Made by a program: the position numbers and the translations under genes | Shown: in pieces, positions 4,767-56,026 of the stretch | Layout: each line of letters opens with the position of its first letter | Position numbering within the stretch: position 1 is the stretch's first letter | Source of the DNA: Candidatus Woesearchaeota archaeon | Lineage (GTDB): Archaea; Nanobdellota; Nanobdellia; Woesearchaeales; GW2011-AR4 | Length of the DNA: 64,000 nucleotides | Reading direction: 5' to 3' | Assembly: GCA_016188245.1 (NCBI GenBank) | Contig: JACPIE010000040.1 | Location: 64,365-128,364 of the forward strand | Notes under the pieces: model-generated | What the model was told of the DNA's origin: nothing | Seen by the model: the letters and a program-made list of their open reading frames with translations, nothing else | Databases searched by the model: none

Positions 4767-4967
4767 CGAAAAGCTTATTAATGACTTCCTGCAGTTTCTG
4801 ATTAAAAGAGAGGTATTTTTAAATATGTCAAAAACACCCCACACTGATACGAAGCGTGTTTTTGAGCATGCCCGGAAATCTTGGGTTTCCGGCATGTCAA
4901 AAAAAGAGGCAGTGTTAGTAATAATCCTAGTTATAATTGCCCTACTTGCAAGTGTCTCTTATGCTGC
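4767..4967 (+). repeat. Segmental duplicate (copy A) of the giant-gene promoter plus signal-peptide region
   Basis: Aligns by eye with 10117-10247 (CGAAAAGCTTATTAATGAC...GGTATTTTTAAATATGTCAAAAA...AAGAGGCAGTGTTAGTAATAATCCTAGTTATAATTGCCCTACTTGCA.GTGTCTCTTATGCTGC), apart from a 69-bp insertion. Confidence 0.85.
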
Positions 4968-5004
4968 AAAGCCTCAAAATATGAATGTAAGCATTCTTTA
5001 TTAA
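4825..5004 (+). pseudogene. Truncated remnant of a giant-secreted-protein paralog (signal peptide only, with an in-frame insertion)
   Basis: Encodes MSKTPHTDTKRVFEHARKSWVSG-MSKKEAVLVIILVIIALLASVSYAAKPQNMNVSILY*. The second half is almost identical to the N-terminus of 10174-16275, then stops 11 codons after the SYAA cleavage-like site. Confidence 0.6.
4835..4893 (+). mobile_element. 59-nt hairpin-bearing miniature insertion flanked by direct repeat ATGTCAAAAA
   Basis: Absent from the paralogous site at 10174-10183. Flanked by ATGTCAAAAA at 4825-4834 and 4894-4903. Contains hairpin CATGC-CCGGAAA/TCTTGGG/TTTCCGG-CATG (4867-4896). A related copy lies inverted at 26191-26231. Confidence 0.55.
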
Positions 5005-5063
5005 ACCCTTGATTTACTTACATGTAACTAACATTTATATATAAGTTATGATACTTATACTCT

Positions 5064-8004: not shown

Positions 8005-8469
8005 TTATTTCAGCTTGGAAATCAAGATAGAATATTCTGTTGAAGAAATGTAATAACCTATTTCAATGAGTTGGCTTAAAATTTTAAGCACTTCAGGTTC
8101 AGTTATGATTCTTTTTTTCATAGCTGCAAAAATAACCGTTGTTGTCCTTACTGCGTTAATGCCAAATGCTTTGGCAGCTTTTATAGCAACGGCATCATCG
8201 AGTATAATGCCGTCTTTCTTCTCGATAGCGAGGTTGATTGCTTGCTCCTCTCCTGCTCCAAGCCCGATTTTAGTTTTTCTTTTTGGGTTGATTACCTTCA
8301 GCCATCCGCCCTTAATGGCATTGTATATGCTTATATATCCATCCTTATCTTCTATAAGCACTTCCTCCTTTACAGCAGGAGGGATAAGTATAATCTTGTA
8401 TACTTTCTTAAGCAAGTCAAGCTTGCTTATCCTGCTCAAGCAAATCAGCGCTGTTGCATCTGATATCAA
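8005..8469 (-). CDS. PIN-like nucleic-acid-binding protein (DUF3368/COG2405-type), putative toxin
   Basis: MISDATALICLSRI...ILDDAVAIKAAKAFGI pattern. TTGA overlap with the upstream UPF0175-like gene. Alternative (TTG) start. Confidence 0.65.
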   Translation of the reverse strand: MISDATALICLSRISKLDLLKKVYKIILIPPAVKEEVLIEDKDGYISIYNAIKGGWLKVINPKRKTKIGLGAGEEQAINLAIEKKDGIILDDAVAIKAAKAFGINAVRTTTVIFAAMKKRIITEPEVLKILSQLIEIGYYISSTEYSILISKLK

Positions 8470-8792
8470 GATTTTCCCTCTAGAAGCCTAAGATCACTTT
8501 CAAGATCTTCTTTGGAATAGCCCGTCCAGTTTATATTATTCTCTTTTGCAATATCAAGCATTTCCCATAGCGAAAGCCCGCATTCTTCAGCAGCGCTGCC
8601 GATTGAAATTTTGTGCTGTCTCAATCTTTCAATAGAGTTTTGTATTTTCCAAGAGCTTACAGCTTTAGCTAACAGCCTTCTAATGGCTTCTGAGCGGTCT
8701 GCCTGCCAGTTTTTCTCAATTTCAGACAAATCCTTGACAAGTGAATTATCAAGCCTTACCGAAATAGTCGTTGTCATTGTATTCAATATCAT
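8466..8792 (-). CDS. UPF0175/RHH-type antitoxin-like protein
   Basis: N-terminal TISVRLDNSLVKDLSEIE...EAIRRLL is RHH-like. The C-terminal SIGSAAEECGLSLWEMLDIAKENNI is typical of UPF0175 partners of DUF3368 PIN proteins. Confidence 0.65.
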   Translation of the reverse strand: MILNTMTTTISVRLDNSLVKDLSEIEKNWQADRSEAIRRLLAKAVSSWKIQNSIERLRQHKISIGSAAEECGLSLWEMLDIAKENNINWTGYSKEDLESDLRLLEGKS

Positions 8793-45117: not shown

Positions 45118-45717
45118 TTATCTCGAGCTGTCTGCCTGCCTTTCAATCTCGAGCTTTTTCGATATGGCATGTGATGCGCTGCTTAGCCTGTATGCGCTTA
45201 TTATCTCTTCAGCAAGGCTGGATATGATTGATTTCTTGGTGTTAAAAGTCCTGTGGTATGCCCCCTGAGTCATGTACTTCAGGGCCAAATCAACCCTTCT
45301 TTGGGGCGAGCACTCAACTGCTTTTGGGTATCTTGCTCCCCCGTATTCTATCGTTACAATCTCTTCCCTTTGGGCGGCATTTTCCAGTGCCTTGACAAAA
45401 ACCTTGATTGGGTTTTCCTTTGTTGTTTTTTCAATCTGCCTGAAAACTTCCTCAACAATCAGGTAAGATGTCTGGGCTTTTCCGGTAATATGGCCACTGG
45501 ACTTGTAATGTTTCTTGCTTTTATGCCCCGGCACCATTATCTTGTTTATCAGCCTCTCAACAATGAATGTCTTGCTCTTGTGGAACCTGCTTCCGGCATA
45601 TCTTGCTCCTGTCTTGGGAACAATTCTCGGCTGCAGGGTAAGGTACGGCTGCAGCCCAAAGTCATCTACCTTGATGCCTTCCATTCCCCACCTGTTGAAA
45701 ACTTTTATTTCTGGCAT
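45118..45717 (-). CDS. rps7: Ribosomal protein uS7
   Basis: ERLINKIMVPGH...KVFVKALENAAQREEIVTIEYGGARYPKAVECSPQRRVDLALKYM. Confidence 0.9.
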   Translation of the reverse strand: MPEIKVFNRWGMEGIKVDDFGLQPYLTLQPRIVPKTGARYAGSRFHKSKTFIVERLINKIMVPGHKSKKHYKSSGHITGKAQTSYLIVEEVFRQIEKTTKENPIKVFVKALENAAQREEIVTIEYGGARYPKAVECSPQRRVDLALKYMTQGAYHRTFNTKKSIISSLAEEIISAYRLSSASHAISKKLEIERQADSSR

Positions 45718-45784: not shown

Positions 45785-46030
45785 TTATCTGTATGGGGAA
45801 AAAAGAGTTATTGAAACTCTTGGCACCTCTACCACTCCGCGCCCCTTTTCAGATAAGTAAAAAACCTTATCTCCAGATTCTATTCTTGCTACAAAAGCCT
45901 TAACGCCACTAACTTCTCCATCGGGGCCACTATATCTTACATATGCCCTTCTTATTTCTGGTTTTGCGGAGTCGTCATATTTCACATGCCCAACAACCGG
46001 CAATTCGCCAATCATTTTTTCATCAATCAT
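45785..46030 (-). CDS. ORFan (81 aa) inserted between rps12 and rps7
   Basis: ORF on the same strand, 20 nt after the rps12 stop. No motif recognised. Confidence 0.45.
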   Translation of the reverse strand: MIDEKMIGELPVVGHVKYDDSAKPEIRRAYVRYSGPDGEVSGVKAFVARIESGDKVFYLSEKGRGVVEVPRVSITLFSPYR

Positions 46031-46050: not shown

Positions 46051-46488
46051 TTATTTTCTTGCCTTTTCTATCCTTCCTTTCAATAATGCATCCAAACTCT
46101 GGTCATTTACTTTTATGACCTGCCATCTCACACCTGGAATGTCGCCCTTGCTCTTGCCCATTGCGCCGCCGATGCACTCAATGATGACTTCATCGTGCTC
46201 GTCAATCATCTTTGTAGCCCCATCTCTTGGGCAGAATGCCGTGACCTGCTTCCCGTTCTTTATGAGCTGGACCCTGACGCATTTCCTCATTGCAGAATTG
46301 GGCTGCTTTGCCTCAAGCTGGACTTTTTCAATGACAATTCCTTTTGCCTGGGATGCCCCTTCCAAGGGATCTGAGCGCGCCTTCATTCGCAGGATTCTCC
46401 TTATGTAGGGGCCGTAGTGCCACCTGCCCTCCTTTCTCCTGTTCCTGAGCCTTTTTCCGGCGAATAGTCCTCTTGCCTTTTTTCCCAT
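46051..46488 (-). CDS. rps12: Ribosomal protein uS12
   Basis: [31 protein letters not shown]...[14 protein letters not shown]. Confidence 0.95.
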
Positions 46489-46533
46489 GTGGTTGGTATT
46501 TTTAAATGCTTTTTAAATGTTGCGTCAATATTT

Positions 46534-46938
46534 TTAGACAACCTTCACTTCCTTGACATCAAAATAGCGCTTTACAATGTTTGCCAGGTGGTTTATGCTG
46601 TGCCGTTCCCTTCCGATAAGCATCGCTCTTGTGGCAGTGTCCTTTCCGTGGATTGCCACAATCCCGTTTTCAATAGTTACATCTGAAATTTCTGCAGGAT
46701 AAACAAAATTTTTGACAAACTGCAGCACATCGCTGCTGAATTCCGCAAGCTTGATTTTTTTCTTCAGCATGCCTTCCATCTTCCTTATGTTTGAGCCGTT
46801 TCTGCCGATTGCCTTGCCTATGTCATTCTCCTCTATTATGAAAATCAGCTTTTCATTCTGTATGCAGTCCTTGACTTTGGCGCCGGTGTTTGCCTCAAAA
46901 AGCGCGATTAATTTAAGCGATTCAGAGTCAAGCTTCAT
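46534..46938 (-). CDS. nusA: Archaeal NusA-like protein (two KH domains)
   Basis: IGKAIGRNGSNIRKMEGMLKKKIKL (GxxG KH motif) and RAMLIGRERHSINHL. Start at MKLDSESLKL (46938). Confidence 0.85.
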   Translation of the reverse strand: MKLDSESLKLIALFEANTGAKVKDCIQNEKLIFIIEENDIGKAIGRNGSNIRKMEGMLKKKIKLAEFSSDVLQFVKNFVYPAEISDVTIENGIVAIHGKDTATRAMLIGRERHSINHLANIVKRYFDVKEVKVV

Positions 46939-46943
46939 CTTGC

Positions 46944-47222
46944 TCACTTGGTCTTCAGCAAAGCCAGCACAGATATAGAAAAAGGCTTTTTGCATATGAC
47001 TCCCAGCTCGTCATTTGGATAGTCAATCTTGTGCAGCTCTGTTCCGCTCAGCCCTGCATAATAGCTTATGTCCTTCTCGACTTGTGCAGGGCAGTTGGAG
47101 CTCAAAAGGATTTTTTGTATCTTTCCAAGCTTCAGGCTTTTCACAGTTTTCTCAGTGCCGATGATAACGCCGCCTGATTTCATCATTTTCTTGATTTCTG
47201 CCGAGCTTATTTTTTTGGACAT
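46944..47222 (-). CDS. rpl30e: Ribosomal protein eL30
   Basis: GGVIIGTEKTVKSLKLGKIQKILLSSNCP...ELGVICKKPFSISVLAL, in the canonical position before nusA. Confidence 0.85.
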   Translation of the reverse strand: MSKKISSAEIKKMMKSGGVIIGTEKTVKSLKLGKIQKILLSSNCPAQVEKDISYYAGLSGTELHKIDYPNDELGVICKKPFSISVLALLKTK

Positions 47223-47623: not shown

Positions 47624-50320
47624 CTAAACCGTATGGATTATCCTCTTAACATTAACGATTCCGTTTTCTGACTTTGAGACGTCAATGCCGTCTTCGCCGT
47701 AGTCAAACTGGATGATTTTTTTGGATGCGTCCCTTACAGTATGGTCATACTCAACTTTCAGGTCCTGCATGGCGTTTGCAAGCCTCCTGTAAAGGTAGCC
47801 GCTTTTTGGCGTTCTCAGCGCAGTGTCCATCAGTGAATCTCTTCCAGTCATGGAGCCGAAGAAGAATTCAGACGGGGTTAACCCGGACTTAAAGCCGTCG
47901 CTTATAAAGCCGTGGGCATCCGGGCTTAGGTCATTTTTCTTAAAATGGGACAATGTTCTTTGATCATAGCCTTTCTCTATCCTCTTGCCCCTCATTGCCT
48001 GCTGCCCCACACATGCCGCCATCTGCGCCAGGTTAAGCAAATTCCCTCTTGCCCCGGACTCCGCCATGATCATTGTATTTGTCCTTTTGTCGGCGTGGTT
48101 TGCAACAGTCCTTCCGGTTTCATTTCTTGCCTTGTTTAAAATTTCAAGTATCCTGAGCTCCAGGGTTTCCTGCAGTGTCTTGCCGGGAAATGTATCAAGC
48201 TTCCCTTCCTTAAACTGGATTATCAAATTGTCAACTTCTTTTTTTGCCGAATCAAGGTCTTCCTTTATCTTCATTTTTGCAGATTCCGGCAAGTCGGTGT
48301 CCGACAATGCCGAAGTAAATCCGACTCTGAGCAGGTATTCTATTCCAAGCCTGAACACCTTGCCGAGGAAGTCTATGCTCAAGTCCTTGCCGTATTTTTG
48401 ATGGATGTTTCTCAGCATAAGCCCGGATTCTTCCCCAAGTGAATTTCTGTCCAAAACTCCGGAGACCAGCTTGCCGTCTTCTATCACAACATGGGTTTCC
48501 TTGTCGCATTTTTCTTTTGACCTGTCGCAAAGCCTTGAGTGCCCGCTGTAATTAAAATTGTCAGGCAGCAAAACGCTGAACACTTCCCTGCCGGCAACGA
48601 CAGATTTTCTTGGCAGTTTTGTGAAGTCGGCAACGCCAACTGCTGCCAGCAAATCGATAGCATCTTCCCTTTTCACTGAATTATCCCTTGAAAGCATGTA
48701 GTTGCCGGATATGGCATCCTGGGTGCACCCTATTATGCTCAGCCCATATCTCAATGAGACAAGCTGTGTCTGCACTTCCATCAAAATCTCAGCCTCTGCC
48801 CTCGCCTCCTCTGTTTGTGGGATGTGCAGGTTCATTTCATCTCCGTCAAAATCCGCATTATATGGCGTGCATACAGCCGGATTGAGCCTCAAAGTTTTTC
48901 CGGGCAATACCCTTACCCGGTGGCACATCATGCTCATCCTGTGCAGGCTTGGCTGACGGTTGAAAATTGCAACATCTCCGTCCATGAGGTGCCTCTCGAC
49001 AATATAGCCCGGCTGCAGCTCTTCCAAAGAAGTTTCCTTTGTTTCTTCTGTTATTTTTTTCTTCTTGCCGTCAGGCCTTATTATATAATTTGCTCCCGGA
49101 TACTTGTCAGGCCCTTTTTCAACAAACTGCTTTAGGTATTGGATATTCCATTCGTTGACCCTTTCAGGCACGGTAAGCTTGTTTGCAATGATGAAAGGCA
49201 CGCCGACTTCATAAAGCTCAAGCATTGGATCCGGAGAGATGACTGTTCTTGCAGAGAAATTTGTTCTTTTTCCTGCCAGATTGTGCCTTATCCTTCCTTC
49301 CTTGCTTTTTATCCTCTCGGTCAGTGTCTTTAATGGCTGGCCGCTCCTATGCCTTGCAGGAGGCAGCTGCGCAATGCTGTTATCAAAAAATGTAGTGACA
49401 TGGTACTGCAGCAGGTCCCACAAGTCCTCGACAATTATTTCAGGGGCGCCTGCATTTATGTTTTCAAAAAGCCTTTGGTTAATCCTCACAATGTCGCCAA
49501 GCTTGTGTGTTAAATCGTCTTCGCTCCTTTCGCCGCTTTCAAGGGTTATGCTCGGCCTCATAGTGACCGGCGGGATTGGCAAAATTGTCATAACCATCCA
49601 TTCCGGCCTTACATGGGGCACTTTCAGCCCAAAGATTTCACAATCCGCATCCGGAATTTTTTCAAGCCTTGCCCTTATTTCTATGGGGCTCAGTCTTTTC
49701 TCATCCTCCAAGAATGTTGTCGGCTTTTCCAGTGATAATTTTCTCTGCTTGGCCTTGCAGTTCGGGCATTTTGTAGCCGTCTTCAGGCCCGCTATAATCT
49801 CCTTTACCTTCTGCCTTCTTTCCTCAATGCCGTTTTCCTTTTCAATTTCGTCAAGCTCTTCCTTTATCTTGCCTATCTTGCCGTCAGGAATCAAAATCCT
49901 GCCGCAGTCCCGGCATGTGCACTTGGCCAAGGTCATTATTATGTTTACAAACTTCACGTGGATGATTGGCCTTGCAAGCTCTATATATCCGAAATGCCCT
50001 ATGCACTCTTTCAGCTTTGAGCCGCACGTCTTGCACCTCAGCCCAGGGTCAATGACTCCCAGCCTTATGTCCATCAAGCCGCCGTCAACAGGATAGCCTT
50101 CCTTGTCATACAATTCCGGAGTGACTATCTTGGCAGATGCCATCTTCCTGATCATTTTCGGGCTCAGTACGGAAAATGCAATGCTTCTGACCTGCTTGTA
50201 GATATGCTGCTCTTCCTCAATTCTTTCGGCTTTTGCCACTTTCGCTTCGCCGCCTTCAATAGCCTGCTTCACAGCTTCAATTTCCTGCTCTTCAGCCGCT
50301 TTTTTTTCTTCGTCTGCCAT
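47624..50320 (-). CDS. rpoA1: DNA-directed RNA polymerase subunit A' (N-terminal part of the largest subunit)
   Basis: Zn-clamp CKTCGSKLKECIGHFGYIELARPIIHV and catalytic YNADFDGDEMNLHIPQT. Confidence 0.95.
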   Translation of the reverse strand: MADEEKKAAEEQEIEAVKQAIEGGEAKVAKAERIEEEQHIYKQVRSIAFSVLSPKMIRKMASAKIVTPELYDKEGYPVDGGLMDIRLGVIDPGLRCKTCGSKLKECIGHFGYIELARPIIHVKFVNIIMTLAKCTCRDCGRILIPDGKIGKIKEELDEIEKENGIEERRQKVKEIIAGLKTATKCPNCKAKQRKLSLEKPTTFLEDEKRLSPIEIRARLEKIPDADCEIFGLKVPHVRPEWMVMTILPIPPVTMRPSITLESGERSEDDLTHKLGDIVRINQRLFENINAGAPEIIVEDLWDLLQYHVTTFFDNSIAQLPPARHRSGQPLKTLTERIKSKEGRIRHNLAGKRTNFSARTVISPDPMLELYEVGVPFIIANKLTVPERVNEWNIQYLKQFVEKGPDKYPGANYIIRPDGKKKKITEETKETSLEELQPGYIVERHLMDGDVAIFNRQPSLHRMSMMCHRVRVLPGKTLRLNPAVCTPYNADFDGDEMNLHIPQTEEARAEAEILMEVQTQLVSLRYGLSIIGCTQDAISGNYMLSRDNSVKREDAIDLLAAVGVADFTKLPRKSVVAGREVFSVLLPDNFNYSGHSRLCDRSKEKCDKETHVVIEDGKLVSGVLDRNSLGEESGLMLRNIHQKYGKDLSIDFLGKVFRLGIEYLLRVGFTSALSDTDLPESAKMKIKEDLDSAKKEVDNLIIQFKEGKLDTFPGKTLQETLELRILEILNKARNETGRTVANHADKRTNTMIMAESGARGNLLNLAQMAACVGQQAMRGKRIEKGYDQRTLSHFKKNDLSPDAHGFISDGFKSGLTPSEFFFGSMTGRDSLMDTALRTPKSGYLYRRLANAMQDLKVEYDHTVRDASKKIIQFDYGEDGIDVSKSENGIVNVKRIIHTV

Positions 50321-50399
50321 TTTGTTGTTTGGGTTTTTATTTTATAATTGTTTTAATTTTATTTTTCTATTTATTTTGATTATTTTTTTAATTTTTTAG

Positions 50400-50750
50400 T
50401 TAATTTTTTTGTCCAATCTCTGCGATATGCTTATCTGAAACTTCTCTAGCTTTTGCTTCAACTTTTGCAAGATACTGATCTGCATCTTCTATCAATCTTC
50501 TAACCTGGGGGTTTGTCCCACCATACCAATTCTTTAACTTCCTATAATCCAACTCTCCAATTCTAACTTTATCTTCTTTTCCTTCAAACATTAAAAGTAC
50601 TGGTTGTCCGCCAAATGGAACAAAAGCAGCAACATGACATTCAGCTTCCAATAAACTGTAATCAGCTAACTGATCAAATGAGATAATTGTATCGATATGT
50701 GCTCCTTGAGTCACAAATCTCATAACCTGAATCGGTTTATTTTCTGGCAT
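50400..50750 (-). CDS. ORFan (116 aa) inserted between rpoA2 and rpoA1
   Basis: ORF flanked by 80-130 nt extremely AT-rich spacers. No motif recognised. Confidence 0.45.
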   Translation of the reverse strand: MPENKPIQVMRFVTQGAHIDTIISFDQLADYSLLEAECHVAAFVPFGGQPVLLMFEGKEDKVRIGELDYRKLKNWYGGTNPQVRRLIEDADQYLAKVEAKAREVSDKHIAEIGQKN

Positions 50751-50877
50751 TTTTATTTTTTAGGCATTGTACAATTTTAGTTTAGTGATTTTATAGTCAA
50801 TGTGAATTTTATTTTTTAATTTCTTTTTCTGTTGATTTCCCAACGCATTATTTTAAAATTTAAAATATAAAAAATTT

Positions 50878-52038
50878 TTATTTCTCTTTCGCGGCTTTCT
50901 GCGGCGCTTTTACAGTCAATCCAGGGAGCCCTGTTCCGATAGGAATTGCCTGGTTGATCATGACGTTTTCAACAACTGAGTCGAGATTGTCAACTTCTCC
51001 CACAAGGGCTGCATTTATTATGTGTTTTATCGGCGTTTCAAATGACGCTCTTGCCAAAACGCTTGATTTCTCGCTTACAACCCCATATCTTGTGATGCCC
51101 TTGACTGTGCCGCTGACGCACATTGTATCTGCCACAAGCATGATGTGCCTGACATCAACATTCAGGCCCTGGCTCTCTATGACTTTCAGTATCTCATTGA
51201 TAATGGCCTGGCGGGCAGCTTCTATTCCAAGCACGTGCTCGATTTCGAAAAGATTGTTGGTCGTTGTCCTGTAGGCATCAACTTCCTCGAGCTGCAGGAT
51301 ATCTGCCAGATTGGAGCCTGCAGTGATTATAACAAACTCTTCCTCTCTTTTTACAGGGAGCACCTGGAAGATTCCCTTAATCCCTTTTACGTTTATCTCC
51401 TTTATCTTTTCCTTCGTTTTGTAAGAGTCATTGAACGAGTCTTCCTTGCTCCTGGCTTTCAGCACAATCGAATCCTTGTTGTCCCTTAAGTTGTAGCCTT
51501 TCAGCTGCTTGGAGATTGCATCAAGGACTTTGCCGGTTGTAAGGTCAATTTCTTTCATCTTGTCCTTGTCAAGCTTCACTTCAATTGTCAGGTCGGCAAT
51601 GTTGATTGTGAATTCTGTTGCTATGTCCTTCAGCTTTGTCTCCTTGATTTGAAGCGCCAAATGCCTCAAATCTTCTATTTTTTTGCCTGTTGCAAAAGGC
51701 TTTTTCAGGTAAATCTCCATCATAGGGTTGTCGAGCTCTTTCCTACCGTCAAGGATTTCAATAATCCTCGGCAGTCCCAATGTCACATTCATCTCCGCAA
51801 CTCCGGCAAAATGGAAAGTGTTCAATGTCATCTGTGTGCCTGGCTCGCCGATAGATTCCGCTGCAATCAGCCCAACTGATTCGCCAGGGGCAACTCTGGA
51901 GTTTTTGTATTCCTCACAAGTCGCTTCGAGAAGCTTCTTCAATTTAGTTTCGCTGATGCCTTTTGCAATGCTATTCCTGACATCCTCGATTATTTTGGGC
52001 GGAAGCCTGTCTTCATACTCTGAGATTATGTCTGCCAT
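50878..52038 (-). CDS. rpoA2: DNA-directed RNA polymerase subunit A'' (C-terminal part, trigger loop)
   Basis: [50 protein letters not shown]. Confidence 0.95.
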
Positions 52039-52074
52039 TGTGTTTTGTTATTTTATTTTTTCAAAATTTTATTA

Positions 52075-53877
52075 TCAGTACTTGCTCTCCAGCTGCAGCT
52101 TCGGATAAATCCCCAGTGACTTGAACTCATCAAGCATCAGCTTGAAGGCATAGCTTATCTCTATGTCATTCACGTCGACATTCTCGCCGCAAACCGGGCA
52201 GTATGACTTGTTCCTGTAGTTATCCCTTATTGCAATGATTCCGCAGCTGTCGCACACCGGAACAACTGTCTTGTCGCTGTCAAACCTTTCCTTCAAAAGC
52301 AATGAAGCTCCGTGGGCCACAAAAGTGTCTTTCTCCATTTCTCCCAGCCTTAATCCGCCTTCTTTTGCCCTTCCCTCTGTAGGCTGCCTTGTAAGCAGCT
52401 GGATTGGGCCTCTCGCTCTTGAATGTATTTTGTTTGCAACCATGTGCTTTAATTTCAGATAGTACATGTCTCCAATGAATATTTTTGCGTGGTATTGCTC
52501 GCCGGTCTGCCCATTGTACATTGTTTCAACGCCGCTTTCTCTGAATCCAAGGGAAAGCAATTCTTTTCTCAGCCTTTCCTCCGGCTCCGCATCAAAAGTG
52601 GTCCCGTTGATGTGCCTCCCTGCCAAAGCGCCAACTTTACCGGCCACCATTTCAATCAGATGCGATATGGTCATTCTTGAAGGTATTCCATGAGGGGAAA
52701 ATATCAAATCCGGCACTATTCCGGATGCCGAGAAGGGCATATCGCTTTGCGGAACTATCAGGCCGACAATTCCTTTTTGGCCGTGCCTGCTGGTGAATTT
52801 GTCGCCTACTTCAGGGACTCTTTCGTCCCTTAGCCTTACCTGCACAAGCCTGTTGCCTTCTTCATTTTCTGTTATCAGGACAAAATCTACAACGCCTTCT
52901 TCTCCATGCTTTAAGTTTATGGAGCTTTCCCTTCTTGTGCTTGAGGCAAGGGAATACTCTTCCATTGAGCTTAAGAACCTCGGAGGGGAAGTCTTTCCGA
53001 TGACTACATCCCCTTCCTTGACTTTTGCTTCAGGATAGATTATCCCGTCGTCCTCCAAAAACCTGTAGTCTTTTTCAGTTTTGTAGCCCTTGACTTCTTT
53101 ATCCGGAATGCAGACCTGGTCAATTAAGCCGCCTGCATACCTGAGCTCTTCTGCAATGCTTGGCCTGTAATAGGTGGATCTTCCCAGCCCTTTTTCAATA
53201 GAGCCCTTATTGAGCACGATTGCGTCTTCCATGTTGTAGCCTTTGTAGCTCATTATTGCAACAACCAGGTTTTGGCCGGCAGGATGCGTATCATACTTTG
53301 AGATATCGTGCATTATTGTATTCACTATGGGCCTTTGCGGATAGTGCATCAAATTGACGTCCATGTCCATCCTAACGGCAAAGTTGGAGGCGTAGAATCC
53401 CAATGCCTGCTTTTGGTTTTTTGAGCCCGCGTTAAGCCTTGTTGACTGGTTAAAGTTTCCATACGGGACAAGGGACGTGCAATAGCCAAGCATTCCCAAA
53501 GGAGTTATCTCGAGATGTGTATGCTCTGGCGTTAATTCGCTCTCAAAAAAGGCAATTAATGAGTTCTCTTCTTCTGCGGCATCAAGATATTCAATGACCC
53601 CTTGCTTCACCAAGTCCGACCATGAAATTTCATTTTTTTCCAATTGCTTTATGTGCTTTTCTGTGAGCAAAGGCACCCCGTCCTTGATAATTATTAATGG
53701 CCTTCTTGCCCTTCCCTTTGAGCTTTCAAGCTGCACCTCGTTTGCCCTCTCATTGTAGTGGACATTAAGCTTGTCAGGCACAGAGCCTTTTCTCCTCTCT
53801 TCCCTTAGTTTCTGCACAAATTCGATCGGGTTGTCAATATTTCCGACAAATTTGCTGTTGAGGTATACTTCTGCCAT
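52075..53877 (-). CDS. rpoB1: DNA-directed RNA polymerase subunit B' (C-terminal part of B)
   Basis: GDKFTSRHGQKGIVG, SRMTISHLIEM, GGLRLGEMEKD and C-terminal Zn ribbon CDSCG...CPVCG. Confidence 0.95.
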   Translation of the reverse strand: MAEVYLNSKFVGNIDNPIEFVQKLREERRKGSVPDKLNVHYNERANEVQLESSKGRARRPLIIIKDGVPLLTEKHIKQLEKNEISWSDLVKQGVIEYLDAAEEENSLIAFFESELTPEHTHLEITPLGMLGYCTSLVPYGNFNQSTRLNAGSKNQKQALGFYASNFAVRMDMDVNLMHYPQRPIVNTIMHDISKYDTHPAGQNLVVAIMSYKGYNMEDAIVLNKGSIEKGLGRSTYYRPSIAEELRYAGGLIDQVCIPDKEVKGYKTEKDYRFLEDDGIIYPEAKVKEGDVVIGKTSPPRFLSSMEEYSLASSTRRESSINLKHGEEGVVDFVLITENEEGNRLVQVRLRDERVPEVGDKFTSRHGQKGIVGLIVPQSDMPFSASGIVPDLIFSPHGIPSRMTISHLIEMVAGKVGALAGRHINGTTFDAEPEERLRKELLSLGFRESGVETMYNGQTGEQYHAKIFIGDMYYLKLKHMVANKIHSRARGPIQLLTRQPTEGRAKEGGLRLGEMEKDTFVAHGASLLLKERFDSDKTVVPVCDSCGIIAIRDNYRNKSYCPVCGENVDVNDIEISYAFKLMLDEFKSLGIYPKLQLESKY

Positions 53878-53970
53878 TTTTGTTCAGTTTTTATTTTGAA
53901 TTATTTTTATTTTTTGATTGCAGTTTATTGATTTTTGCTTTAATATTTATTTCCGGCTATCGTTCAGAGT

Positions 53971-55458
53971 TTATTTTATCGTCTTTACTCCCATTGACTT
54001 GAGCGATTTCAAAATTTCGTCTTCGCTTGTGTCTCCGGATATCGTGCACAGCAGCGCAAGGTTTTTTCTCAGCCCGATGTTTGTCCCTTCAGGAGTTTCT
54101 ATCGGGCACAGCCTTCCAAGGTGGGTTGTATGGAGCTCCCTTGCCTCAAAATTTTCCTGCGAAGCGCTTAGCGGGCTTACAACTCTCTGGAGGTGGGACA
54201 AAGTTTCAAGGTAGTTAAGCCTTTGAATTCTTTGGCTTATTCCTTTTCTGCCGCCTACCCAGACTCCGGTTGCCATTGATGAATATATCCTCTGGGTAAG
54301 CAATTTGTCCCTTATTATGACTTTTATCGACGGAAATTTTCCCCTCTTGACTATTCTCTGGAAATTGTAAAGCAGATCCCCTATCAAAACTTTCAGATTC
54401 AGCCTGAGAAGGTCTGCGAGCAAATCGCCGCTCATCTTGAGCCTCTTATTAATGTAGTGGTCTTTGTCATCCAGTGGGATCTCATTATTTGATGCAAGCA
54501 TATACTTCTTCAGCATTTTGCACAAGTTGTATGCCTTTGATATCCTGTCTTCCGGCTTTATGCCGAGATGAGGCAGCAAATATTTGTCAAGGATTTCCTT
54601 CATCCTGTCTATCCTCACTTCTTTTGACTGGGTAATCCCTATTTTCTTGGCTATGTAGTCCAAAGCATCCTCTTCATTTTTTATGTCGACAAACTCAAGC
54701 AGGTTGATTATTACTTCATCAAACTGCCTCTCGGGCGATATGAATTTTGTTATTTCCTCGTCTTTAAGCAGTCCAAGCGCCTTGACAACAACAATAATCG
54801 GGATCCTCTTGACCCTGGTAAATGTGATGTAGAACAAGCCGTCTTTCATCTTCTCAACAGTATGGGGAATCTTGAAAGAGCCGTATTCTGAAAACAGCTT
54901 TCCGACAATTTCGCTTGGGCCTGTCGCATCCCTTTCAGTCAAAAACCTGTTTGAAGCCAGGTCCTCTATTGTTATGAGGACTTTTTCTGTGCCATTGATG
55001 ATGAAGTAGCCGCCTGGCTCGTCAGGGTCTTCACCTCTCGCAATCAGCTCTTCCCTGCTTAGCTTATGAAGGTGGCACCATCTGCTTTTCAGCATTATTG
55101 GCAGGTTCCCAATCTGTGTGTCGAAGCTTTCACGCTGAACCCCATTAATGTGGGCGCTCACCGTAATCCAGCATGGCGCAGAATAAGTTATTTTTCTCAG
55201 CCTTGCCTCCATGGGGTAGATGTTCCTGCTTGACCCGTCAGCTTCTATCATCTTCGGCTTTTCCACCCAGATCTTGTCTAGCTTTATTTTGAATTCGTCA
55301 ATGTTGTGGGGGATGATTGTCGGAATGATCTCCCTGTTTTCTTCAATGATGTTGATAAGCTCCTTGTCTATGAAGTTGTTAAAAGACGCTATGTCGGAAT
55401 CTACAAAGCTTTGCTCTTCAAAATATTTTTGGATAAGTGTTTTGCCGTATTTATACAT
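53971..55458 (-). CDS. rpoB2: DNA-directed RNA polymerase subunit B'' (N-terminal part of B)
   Basis: SFVDSDIASFNNFIDKEL..., ...GRLCPIETPEGTNIGLRKNLA. Start at MYKYGK (ATG 55458) overlapping the rpoH stop (ATGTATAA). Confidence 0.9.
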   Translation of the reverse strand: MYKYGKTLIQKYFEEQSFVDSDIASFNNFIDKELINIIEENREIIPTIIPHNIDEFKIKLDKIWVEKPKMIEADGSSRNIYPMEARLRKITYSAPCWITVSAHINGVQRESFDTQIGNLPIMLKSRWCHLHKLSREELIARGEDPDEPGGYFIINGTEKVLITIEDLASNRFLTERDATGPSEIVGKLFSEYGSFKIPHTVEKMKDGLFYITFTRVKRIPIIVVVKALGLLKDEEITKFISPERQFDEVIINLLEFVDIKNEEDALDYIAKKIGITQSKEVRIDRMKEILDKYLLPHLGIKPEDRISKAYNLCKMLKKYMLASNNEIPLDDKDHYINKRLKMSGDLLADLLRLNLKVLIGDLLYNFQRIVKRGKFPSIKVIIRDKLLTQRIYSSMATGVWVGGRKGISQRIQRLNYLETLSHLQRVVSPLSASQENFEARELHTTHLGRLCPIETPEGTNIGLRKNLALLCTISGDTSEDEILKSLKSMGVKTIK

Positions 55459-55696
55459 CTGACACCACCCTGTAGAAAACTGCATCTCCGGCAGTCGGGC
55501 TTTTTCTTATGATTTTGACAATGTCGCCAGGCTTTGCCTCAAGCTCTTTTATGGCAGAATCAGTCTTCTGTATTTTTGGAAGCTCCTTGGAAGTAACGTG
55601 GTATCTTTCCAGCAGCTGTGCCTTTTCTTTTTCGCCAAGCTTAAGGTGTTTTGGAGTAAGTGTATGCTTATCGACTTTGAATTTGGGTTTTTTCAT
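55451..55696 (-). CDS. rpoH: DNA-directed RNA polymerase subunit H (Rpb5-like)
   Basis: HTLTPKHLKLGEKEKAQLLERYHVTSKELPKIQKTDSAIKELEAKPGDIVKIIRKSPTAGDAVFYRVV. Start at MKKPKF. Confidence 0.9.
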   Translation of the reverse strand: MKKPKFKVDKHTLTPKHLKLGEKEKAQLLERYHVTSKELPKIQKTDSAIKELEAKPGDIVKIIRKSPTAGDAVFYRVVSDV

Positions 55697-55846
55697 CTTT
55701 TGGTTGCCACTGTTCCAAATCAAGTGGAACGCGAGTGAGCTTCGTTTTTGCGAATTCGCTCACAACTCACTGTGGATTTTAGTTTTGTTGAATCAGCTTT
55801 TCAATGCTGATTCTTATTTTTTGAATTTTTGTGTGATTTTCAAAAG

Positions 55847-56026
55847 TGGGCCGGACGAGACATGCGTGGCTTCGAGACACGCTCGCGTGCCATTTCGGAC
55901 TCGCGACCACCTGATTAAAAGTTTCACCAATGAACTGCCTGAAATTTTTCCAGACTCGGTTCAACACAGGTGCTCTTTCCTGCATGCAAGTTAAGGCTTG
56001 CAGGTACCAGGCTGAGCTACCGGCCC
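55847..56026 (-). tRNA. tRNA-Lys(UUU)-like gene, 180 nt, apparently with three introns (D-loop, anticodon stem, T-loop)
   Basis: GGGCCGG-TA-GCTC-AGCCTGGTA-[about 27 nt hairpin]-A-GAGC-A-CCTG-[44 nt]-A-CTTTTAA-TCAGG-TGGTC-GCGAG-TCCGAA-[33 nt]-T-CTCGT-CCGGCCC-A. Perfect 7-bp acceptor stem. The T-loop is non-canonical at position 55 under this model. Confidence 0.65.

Follow-up and report, generated by a model that had tools for sequence, protein, structure and literature searches.

Exchanged order of the rpoA' and rpoA'' genes in the RNA polymerase cluster of a groundwater genus of Woesearchaeales

The stretch of DNA analysed here (the window, 64,000 nucleotides; positions 64,365 to 128,364 of JACPIE010000040.1, assembly GCA_016188245.1) comes from a Candidatus Woesearchaeota archaeon and belongs to contig C19 of its metagenome-assembled genome (MAG; G000), which comprises 1.29 Mb in 41 contigs and is estimated to be 92% complete. 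It carries the cluster of RNA polymerase (RNAP) and str genes, which were all identified with Pfam from position 55723 down to 45118 and lie contiguously on one (minus) strand. On this strand, the listing of open reading frames (ORFs) together with the Pfam matches gave the order rpoH, rpoB'', rpoB', rpoA'', orf116, rpoA', orf90, rpl30e, nusA and rps12 (Table 1). The gene for the C-terminal part of the largest subunit, rpoA'', is thus located upstream of rpoA', which encodes the N-terminal part, and the canonical adjacency of A' followed by A'' is absent: the next gene after A' is orf90, and after A'' it is orf116, beyond a 127-bp spacer. A copy search of the genome returned one match each for rpoA'' and rpoA'. 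The order rpoB-rpoA'-rpoA'' is among the most conserved gene orders of archaea and follows the N-to-C direction of the subunit that is fused in bacteria and eukaryotes. An earlier, sequence-only reading had claimed that the two rpoA halves are swapped within this operon. Its gene calls, coordinates and motifs were all right, and the swap was confirmed. The rest of the rpoH-B-A-L30e-nusA-S12 cluster is intact. The locus departs from the order of every genome that we sampled outside the genus.

The proteins themselves are of the usual kind. Pfam places the split of Rpo1 inside Rpb1 domain 5; A' holds domains 1 to 4 with the active-site motif, while A'' holds the trigger-loop motif, both as usual. 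In swapped genomes, the C-terminus of A' and the N- and C-termini of A'' aligned position by position with those of canonical genomes. Because the termini, the split point, the active-site motif and the trigger loop are unchanged, the polypeptides are ordinary and the order of the cistrons alone differs. A' and A'' are separate polypeptides that are assembled after translation. Judged from these alignments, the swap is most likely without effect on the enzyme.

Table 1. Features of the RNAP/str cluster in the window, in the order of the minus strand except for the last row
Feature	Coordinates	Strand	Evidence and remarks
rpoH (Rpo5)	55451..55723	-	Pfam RNA_pol_Rpb5_C, E 3e-28
rpoB'' (N-terminal half, split Rpo2)	53971..55485	-	Pfam Rpb2 domains 1-3
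B''/B' spacer, 93 bp, AT-rich	53878..53970	-	Promoter-like site, score 11.4, starting 39 nt before the B' ATG (position weight matrix scan)
rpoB' (C-terminal half of Rpo2)	52075..53877	-	Pfam Rpb2 domains 4-7
B'/A'' junction, 36 bp, new 5' neighbour of A''	52039..52074	-	BRE/TATA-like match, 8.9 at -34
rpoA'' (C-terminal part of Rpo1, trigger loop)	50878..52038	-	Pfam Rpb1_5 positions 65-266, E 9e-51; single copy
A''/orf116 spacer, 127 bp, AT-rich	50751..50877	-	T6 run directly after the A'' stop codon
orf116, species-specific ORFan between A'' and A', 116 aa	50400..50750	-	No Pfam or PHROG family
A' leader, 79 bp, AT-rich	50321..50399	-	BRE/TATA-like matches at -79 (11.4) and -35 (8.9)
rpoA' (N-terminal part of Rpo1)	47624..50320	-	Pfam Rpb1 domains 1-4 and Rpb1_5 positions 1-67; NADFDGDEMN at residue 488; single copy
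orf90, ORFan between A' and L30e, 90 aa	47326..47598	-	No Pfam or PHROG family
rpl30e	46944..47222	-	Pfam Ribosomal_L7Ae
Archaeal nusA (KH domains)	46534..46995	-	Pfam KH_5/KH_2; overlaps the end of L30e, as in relatives
rps12	46051..46488	-	Pfam; own strong leaderless promoter CGCAACATTTAAAAAG starting at -36
rps7	45118..45717	-	Pfam Ribosomal_S7
Third ORFan, 81 aa, between rps12 and rps7	45785..46030	-	

The actual start of rpoH is probably the ATG at 55696, as judged from the sequence. Inteins were found in both rpoA halves among congeneric species; rpoA'' of the window itself has none. An in-frame rpoA'' intein of about 505 aa that includes a LAGLIDADG endonuclease (Pfam Intein_splicing, E 4e-20; LAGLIDADG_3, E 6e-17) is present at L055 4827-7520 (genome G003) and at L053 4262-6958, and also in G008, G012 and G438. 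Its site is the trigger-loop motif (GEPGTQM / intein ...THN / TLNTFHFAG). The rpoA' intein, of about 497 aa (Pfam Intein_splicing, E 2e-17), is located directly before the catalytic motif (...NPAV / CVAPDT...FLTGN / CTPYNADFDGDEMN) and occurs at L034 3988-8166 (G018) and also in G428 and G438.

A chimeric join at 50320-50880 would have made the order an artefact. Looking up the exact orf116 sequence returned 11 Logan per-run contigs (SRR12113419-32), with orf116 identical in all. The Logan contigs L178-L180 are 100% identical to positions 52209-50081 of the window, a segment that begins at the end of B', includes A'' and orf116 and ends inside A', and the same gene layout was present in five further Logan runs. 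Such a join is thus not borne out, at least three separate per-run assemblies being 100% identical across both junctions. That the order as a whole results from assembly or binning, for instance from a chimeric strain join inside conserved RNAP sequence, appears extremely improbable to us. Such chimeras do occur inside rpoA', as the Logan contig L177 shows. However, the identity of the separate runs over both junctions, the presence of the order in about 30 species from differing studies and assemblers, and the absence of a second copy of A'' or A' in the copy search of the 92%-complete MAG all argue against it. L177 (logan:SRR12113428, 4208 bp) was also considered as an A''-orf116-A'-A'' duplication intermediate and was rejected from its identity profile: it is 100% identical to the window over about 1020 nt, then falls abruptly to about 70%, the two parts being joined inside conserved rpoA'. 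Beyond the join, it runs on into the canonical A'-A'' pair of another organism, with an intein. This contig calls for caution in synteny calls from such contigs.

To survey the distribution of the order, loci around rpoA'' were retrieved and probed by tblastn with ten proteins of the window. In this sample, all loci whose A'' is at least 79% identical to that of the window had the order H-B''-B'-A''-A'-L30e-nusA-S12. All loci with an A'' of 73% identity or less, 58 in number and from many Woesearchaeales families, had the canonical order H-B''-B'-A'-A''-L30e-nusA-S12. The same canonical order was found in a further set of 11 loci outside the genus, in four other genera of the same GTDB family and in 28 further genomes drawn from the phylum, and altogether in all of the approximately 90 genomes sampled outside the genus. 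The GTDB genus holds 43 species. Of the 34 in which the order was readable, about 30 have the swap and four (G403, G433, G007 and G434) show the canonical order. The close relatives were obtained in projects on groundwater (Rifle, 'NC_groundwater' and New Zealand groundwater). Since about 30 congeneric species have the same order, it is a lineage trait, and the swap is a real character of one groundwater genus of Woesearchaeales (DPANN).

The presentation of the order as a novelty therefore holds only in part. It is no peculiarity of this genome, close relatives commonly sharing it, but it still appears to be unreported. Our literature search gave the canonical order only and no published description of a reversed rpoA''-rpoA' order. 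In a survey of ribosomal-protein clusters, the rpoA1-rpoA2 order was found in Asgard archaea, Crenarchaeota, Euryarchaeota and one complete DPANN genome (PMC10833476). The swapped order is thus apparently new to the literature. Compared with the canonical archaeal rpoH-rpoB-rpoA1-rpoA2-rpl30e-nusA-rps12-rps7 cluster (PMC10833476), the gene set, the strand, the flanks, the split of rpoB, the split point of rpoA and the presence of each gene in one copy are the same here. The differences are that A'' stands before A', that the tight A'-to-A'' junction is lost, and that this genome has ORFans and AT-rich spacers at four junctions.

These spacers and ORFans had been described as part of the rearrangement. 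In the window, the spacers on the coding strand measure 36 bp (B'/A''), 127 bp (A''/orf116), 79 bp (orf116/A'), 25 bp (A'/orf90) and 103 bp (orf90/L30e). In five of the six outgroup loci the junctions are tight, with 1-19 bp between B'' and B' and 2-16 bp between A' and A'' (57 bp in L057). Within the genus, no junction is of constant length, the values ranging from about 1 bp to nearly 900 bp, and fully compact swapped operons are found in G010 (1, 1, 32 and 1 bp), G017 (11, 25 and 25 bp) and G297, with junctions of 1-33 bp. Because several swapped species are fully compact, the swap needed no spacers, inserted genes or new promoters. The existence of these compact relatives, and the restriction of orf116 to just one other species, leave the claim of a role of spacers and ORFan in the rearrangement without support.

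The sole homologue of orf116 was found in L032, at the same position and with 60% identity. Weak matches (E about 0.01-0.03) linked orf116 to two other ORFs located between A'' and A'; the ORFans are otherwise mutually unrelated. For orf90, no homologue was detected either in the retrieved loci or in the rest of the genome, and neither orf116, orf90 nor seven ORFans from the spacers of relatives matched a Pfam or PHROGs family significantly. Small ORFans of 79-172 aa that are specific to single species have a hotspot in the RNAP/str cluster of the genus, three of them in the window (Table 1) and others in the relatives L037, L040, L050, L055, L116 and L122. Differing ORFs occupy the same junction in different species, and one of them has a signal-peptide-like N-terminus.

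Several spacers of relatives contain repeated sequences. In L122 (G429), the 195-bp leader of rpoB' (4846-5040) and the leader of rpoA' (8409-8605) are 99% identical over 197 bp, which points to a very recent spacer duplication or gene conversion within this operon. The spacers on either side of the A''-A' block of L033 are 76% identical over 223 bp, and a related element, about 80% identical, is found at three junctions of L035. The spacer elements of the relatives match dispersed hairpin repeats of 80-150 bp on at least ten other contigs of the genome under study, which may be elements resembling repetitive extragenic palindromes (REP) or miniature inverted-repeat transposable elements (MITE). 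Copies in this genome lie outside the window at C17:17142-17241, C17:19287-19435, C20:6122-6216, C2:7930-8024 and C19:12491-12581. They are intergenic, form two or three hairpins and often end just 5' of a start codon. No Rfam-type RNA family was detected in the spacers of the window and of four relatives, save one tRNA elsewhere in L124; the repeat copies of this genome themselves were outside that search. Taken together, the spacers, the repeats and the ORFans, orf116 and orf90 included, are later species-specific insertions and no part of the swap.

The swap had also been taken to imply separate promoters for the two genes. To score promoter-like sites, a matrix of the B recognition element and TATA box (BRE/TATA), CGAAAAATTTATAAAT, was derived from 763 upstream regions of this genome. 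Among the genes with intergenic sequence upstream, about half carry this consensus, its first position being about 37 nt 5' of the ATG; an example is the site at 46509-46524 (minus strand) before rps12. This distance indicates that the mRNAs are mainly leaderless. A weaker GGTG signal is present genome-wide at -9 to -12. The rps12 site, with a score of 15.1, is a good positive control because a strong site is present in all relatives: the score was 9 or higher (observed 13.8-17.0) in 22 of the 22 scorable loci of the genus. The sites of the window that precede A'' (8.9 at -34), A' (8.9 at -35 and 11.4 at -79) and B' (11.4 at -39) exceed 99.9% of coding positions but are mid-range for real upstream regions, of which the 75th percentile is 12.9. 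In the swapped relatives, a score of at least 9 was reached in 4 of 24 upstream regions of A'' and in 1 of 15 of A'. The start contexts of A'' and A' in the window are A-rich and have no Shine-Dalgarno motif. Upstream of rpoH (55724-55860, minus strand), no BRE/TATA match was found at the usual distance, the nearest promoter-like site being about 136 nt before the likely ATG. A multi-intron tRNA pair that had been proposed beside this site is not called by ARAGORN. With 8.9 for A'' and A' as against 15.1 for rps12, and with most swapped relatives devoid of such sites, separate promoters do not follow from the swap. Internal promoters are plausible in this genome from their predicted sites, as no property of the swap.

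These sites raise the possibility that the swap and its spacers are adaptive, A'' and A' having been uncoupled into independently regulated units with promoters of their own. The BRE/TATA-like matches stand at leaderless distance before both genes, neither gene has a Shine-Dalgarno motif, and the T6 run behind the A'' stop codon is a possible candidate for an archaeal oligo-T terminator. However, the scores are moderate when compared with the rps12 control and with the 75th percentile of upstream regions, AT-rich spacers match such a matrix easily, and only the few A'' and A' regions of swapped relatives counted above reach a score of 9. Furthermore, the 1-bp junctions of the compact swapped relatives show that the swap itself brought no promoters, and RNAP requires A' and A'' at 1:1. 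We therefore regard adaptive uncoupling as unlikely.

In our opinion, the data are very probably explained by a neutral-type local exchange of the adjacent A' and A'' genes near the base of one genus-level Woesearchaeales clade. Since the products assemble after translation, the exchange of two adjacent genes would be neutral or nearly so. It altered the order of the cistrons and abolished the ancestral tight A'-to-A'' junction. In the ancestral swapped state, the genes probably lay close together and were co-transcribed, with 1 bp between B' and A'', about 30 bp between A'' and A', and 1 bp between A' and L30e. The junctions would later have been loosened in many species, including this one, by AT-rich spacers, hairpin repeats and ORFans. 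Two routes may be envisaged. If the A'-A'' pair was duplicated in tandem and both outer copies were then lost (reciprocal loss), exactly the swapped order would result; this route would also permit a later reversal, and repeats at the junctions would favour both steps. Alternatively, the genes may have been exchanged by recombination between junction repeats. We infer the molecular route from the sequences, as we do co-transcription in the compact members and the internal promoters and the terminator of the present genome.

Several points weigh against this simple exchange. The neutrality of the swap was inferred. No pseudogene fragment of A' or A'' was detected in 71 spacers (tblastn, E<=5), and no duplicated A'/A'' intermediate was present among the genomes surveyed; the lack of remnants is compatible with an old event. 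Finally, the four canonical genomes of the genus (G403, G433, G007 and G434) form one tight clade with a long stem, which was placed amid swapped lineages, near G019/G426 and G010/G017, in every tree. It may thus be too simple to assume one clean event at the genus base; a swap near that base is secure.

The trees were built from two data sets, the concatenated B'', B', A' and A'' proteins (36 rows, 2387 columns) and 15 genes from 21 genomes (4713 columns). The canonical clade was nested with FastTree, in careful searches under LG+G4 with both data sets, and in a quick search under LG+C20 with posterior mean site frequencies (PMSF), with Shimodaira-Hasegawa-like approximate likelihood ratio test (SH-aLRT) values of 89-93. 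A first quick maximum likelihood (ML) tree, which seemingly forced two changes, was discarded: it was a poor optimum, because the constrained tree was better by 42 log-likelihood units. The genus is almost star-like at its base, with very short basal branches and bootstrap values of 33-69. Synteny past the cluster is confined to the genus, and adding flanking genes left the resolution low.

These trees bear on whether the order flipped twice, by a swap at the base of the genus and a reversion to A'-A'' in the subclade of G403, G433, G007 and G434, driven by repeat recombination at the operon junctions. In both flips, unequal crossing-over between similar AT-rich or hairpin repeats would have produced a tandem duplication, and the outer copies would then have been lost. 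Besides the nested position of the canonical clade, the swapped genomes were monophyletic in none of 200 bootstrap trees with either data set. Long-branch attraction would draw a long-stemmed clade towards the outgroup, and the opposite was observed. The A'/A'' junction of the canonical clade within the genus measures 69-300 bp, in contrast with the tight junctions of the outgroup loci given above, and direct repeats flank genes in L033 (around the A''-A' block), L035 (at all three junctions), L122 and L124. However, one origin of the swap was not rejected by approximately unbiased (AU) tests (p = 0.10 and p = 0.18), the shortness and low bootstrap values of the basal branches leave room for it, and a better tree had been missed by the first quick search. 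Moreover, neither a duplicated intermediate nor a remnant was found, compact swapped genomes have no junction repeats, and the similarity of the spacers is partly that of low-complexity AT-rich sequence. We tentatively favour a later reversion in the canonical subclade, as suggested by the sequence trees, and give the full succession of two repeat-driven flips somewhat less than an even chance. The alternative is that this subclade simply retained the ancestral order.

An exchange near the base of the genus, whether or not followed by a reversion, can be compared with other systems. Duplication followed by deletion is a model for the origin of circularly permuted proteins. The likeness lies in the outcome: for one ancestral protein, the coding sequence of the C-terminal module precedes that of the N-terminal module. 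In contrast to that model, the modules are here separate genes and no permuted polypeptide results; an intermediate or remnant was likewise not found. In the Heimdallarchaeia PR6/PM71, the RNAP and ribosomal clusters are fragmented or dispersed (PMC10833476). Conserved gene order is thus broken in reduced or rearranged archaeal genomes there as well, the present genome being small. However, the cluster studied here is contiguous and just two neighbouring cistrons are exchanged.

The clade of about 30 species with the reversed order constitutes a natural experiment. It suggests that neither the placement of the N-terminal half first nor the tight coupling of A' to A'' is required for a working RNA polymerase. 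The swap also provides a clean rare-genomic-change marker for a lineage of Woesearchaeales, and both pipelines and people that infer from gene order or concatenate 'rpoA' should allow for it. Since the enzyme is apparently ordinary, the relevance of the finding is to genome evolution and not to mechanism. If the order was indeed flipped twice by dispersed repeats, a highly conserved archaeal operon would be a recurrent substrate of recombination in these DPANN archaea; and if the reversion is real, the locus would be tractable for studying the repeat-driven reshuffling of essential operons.

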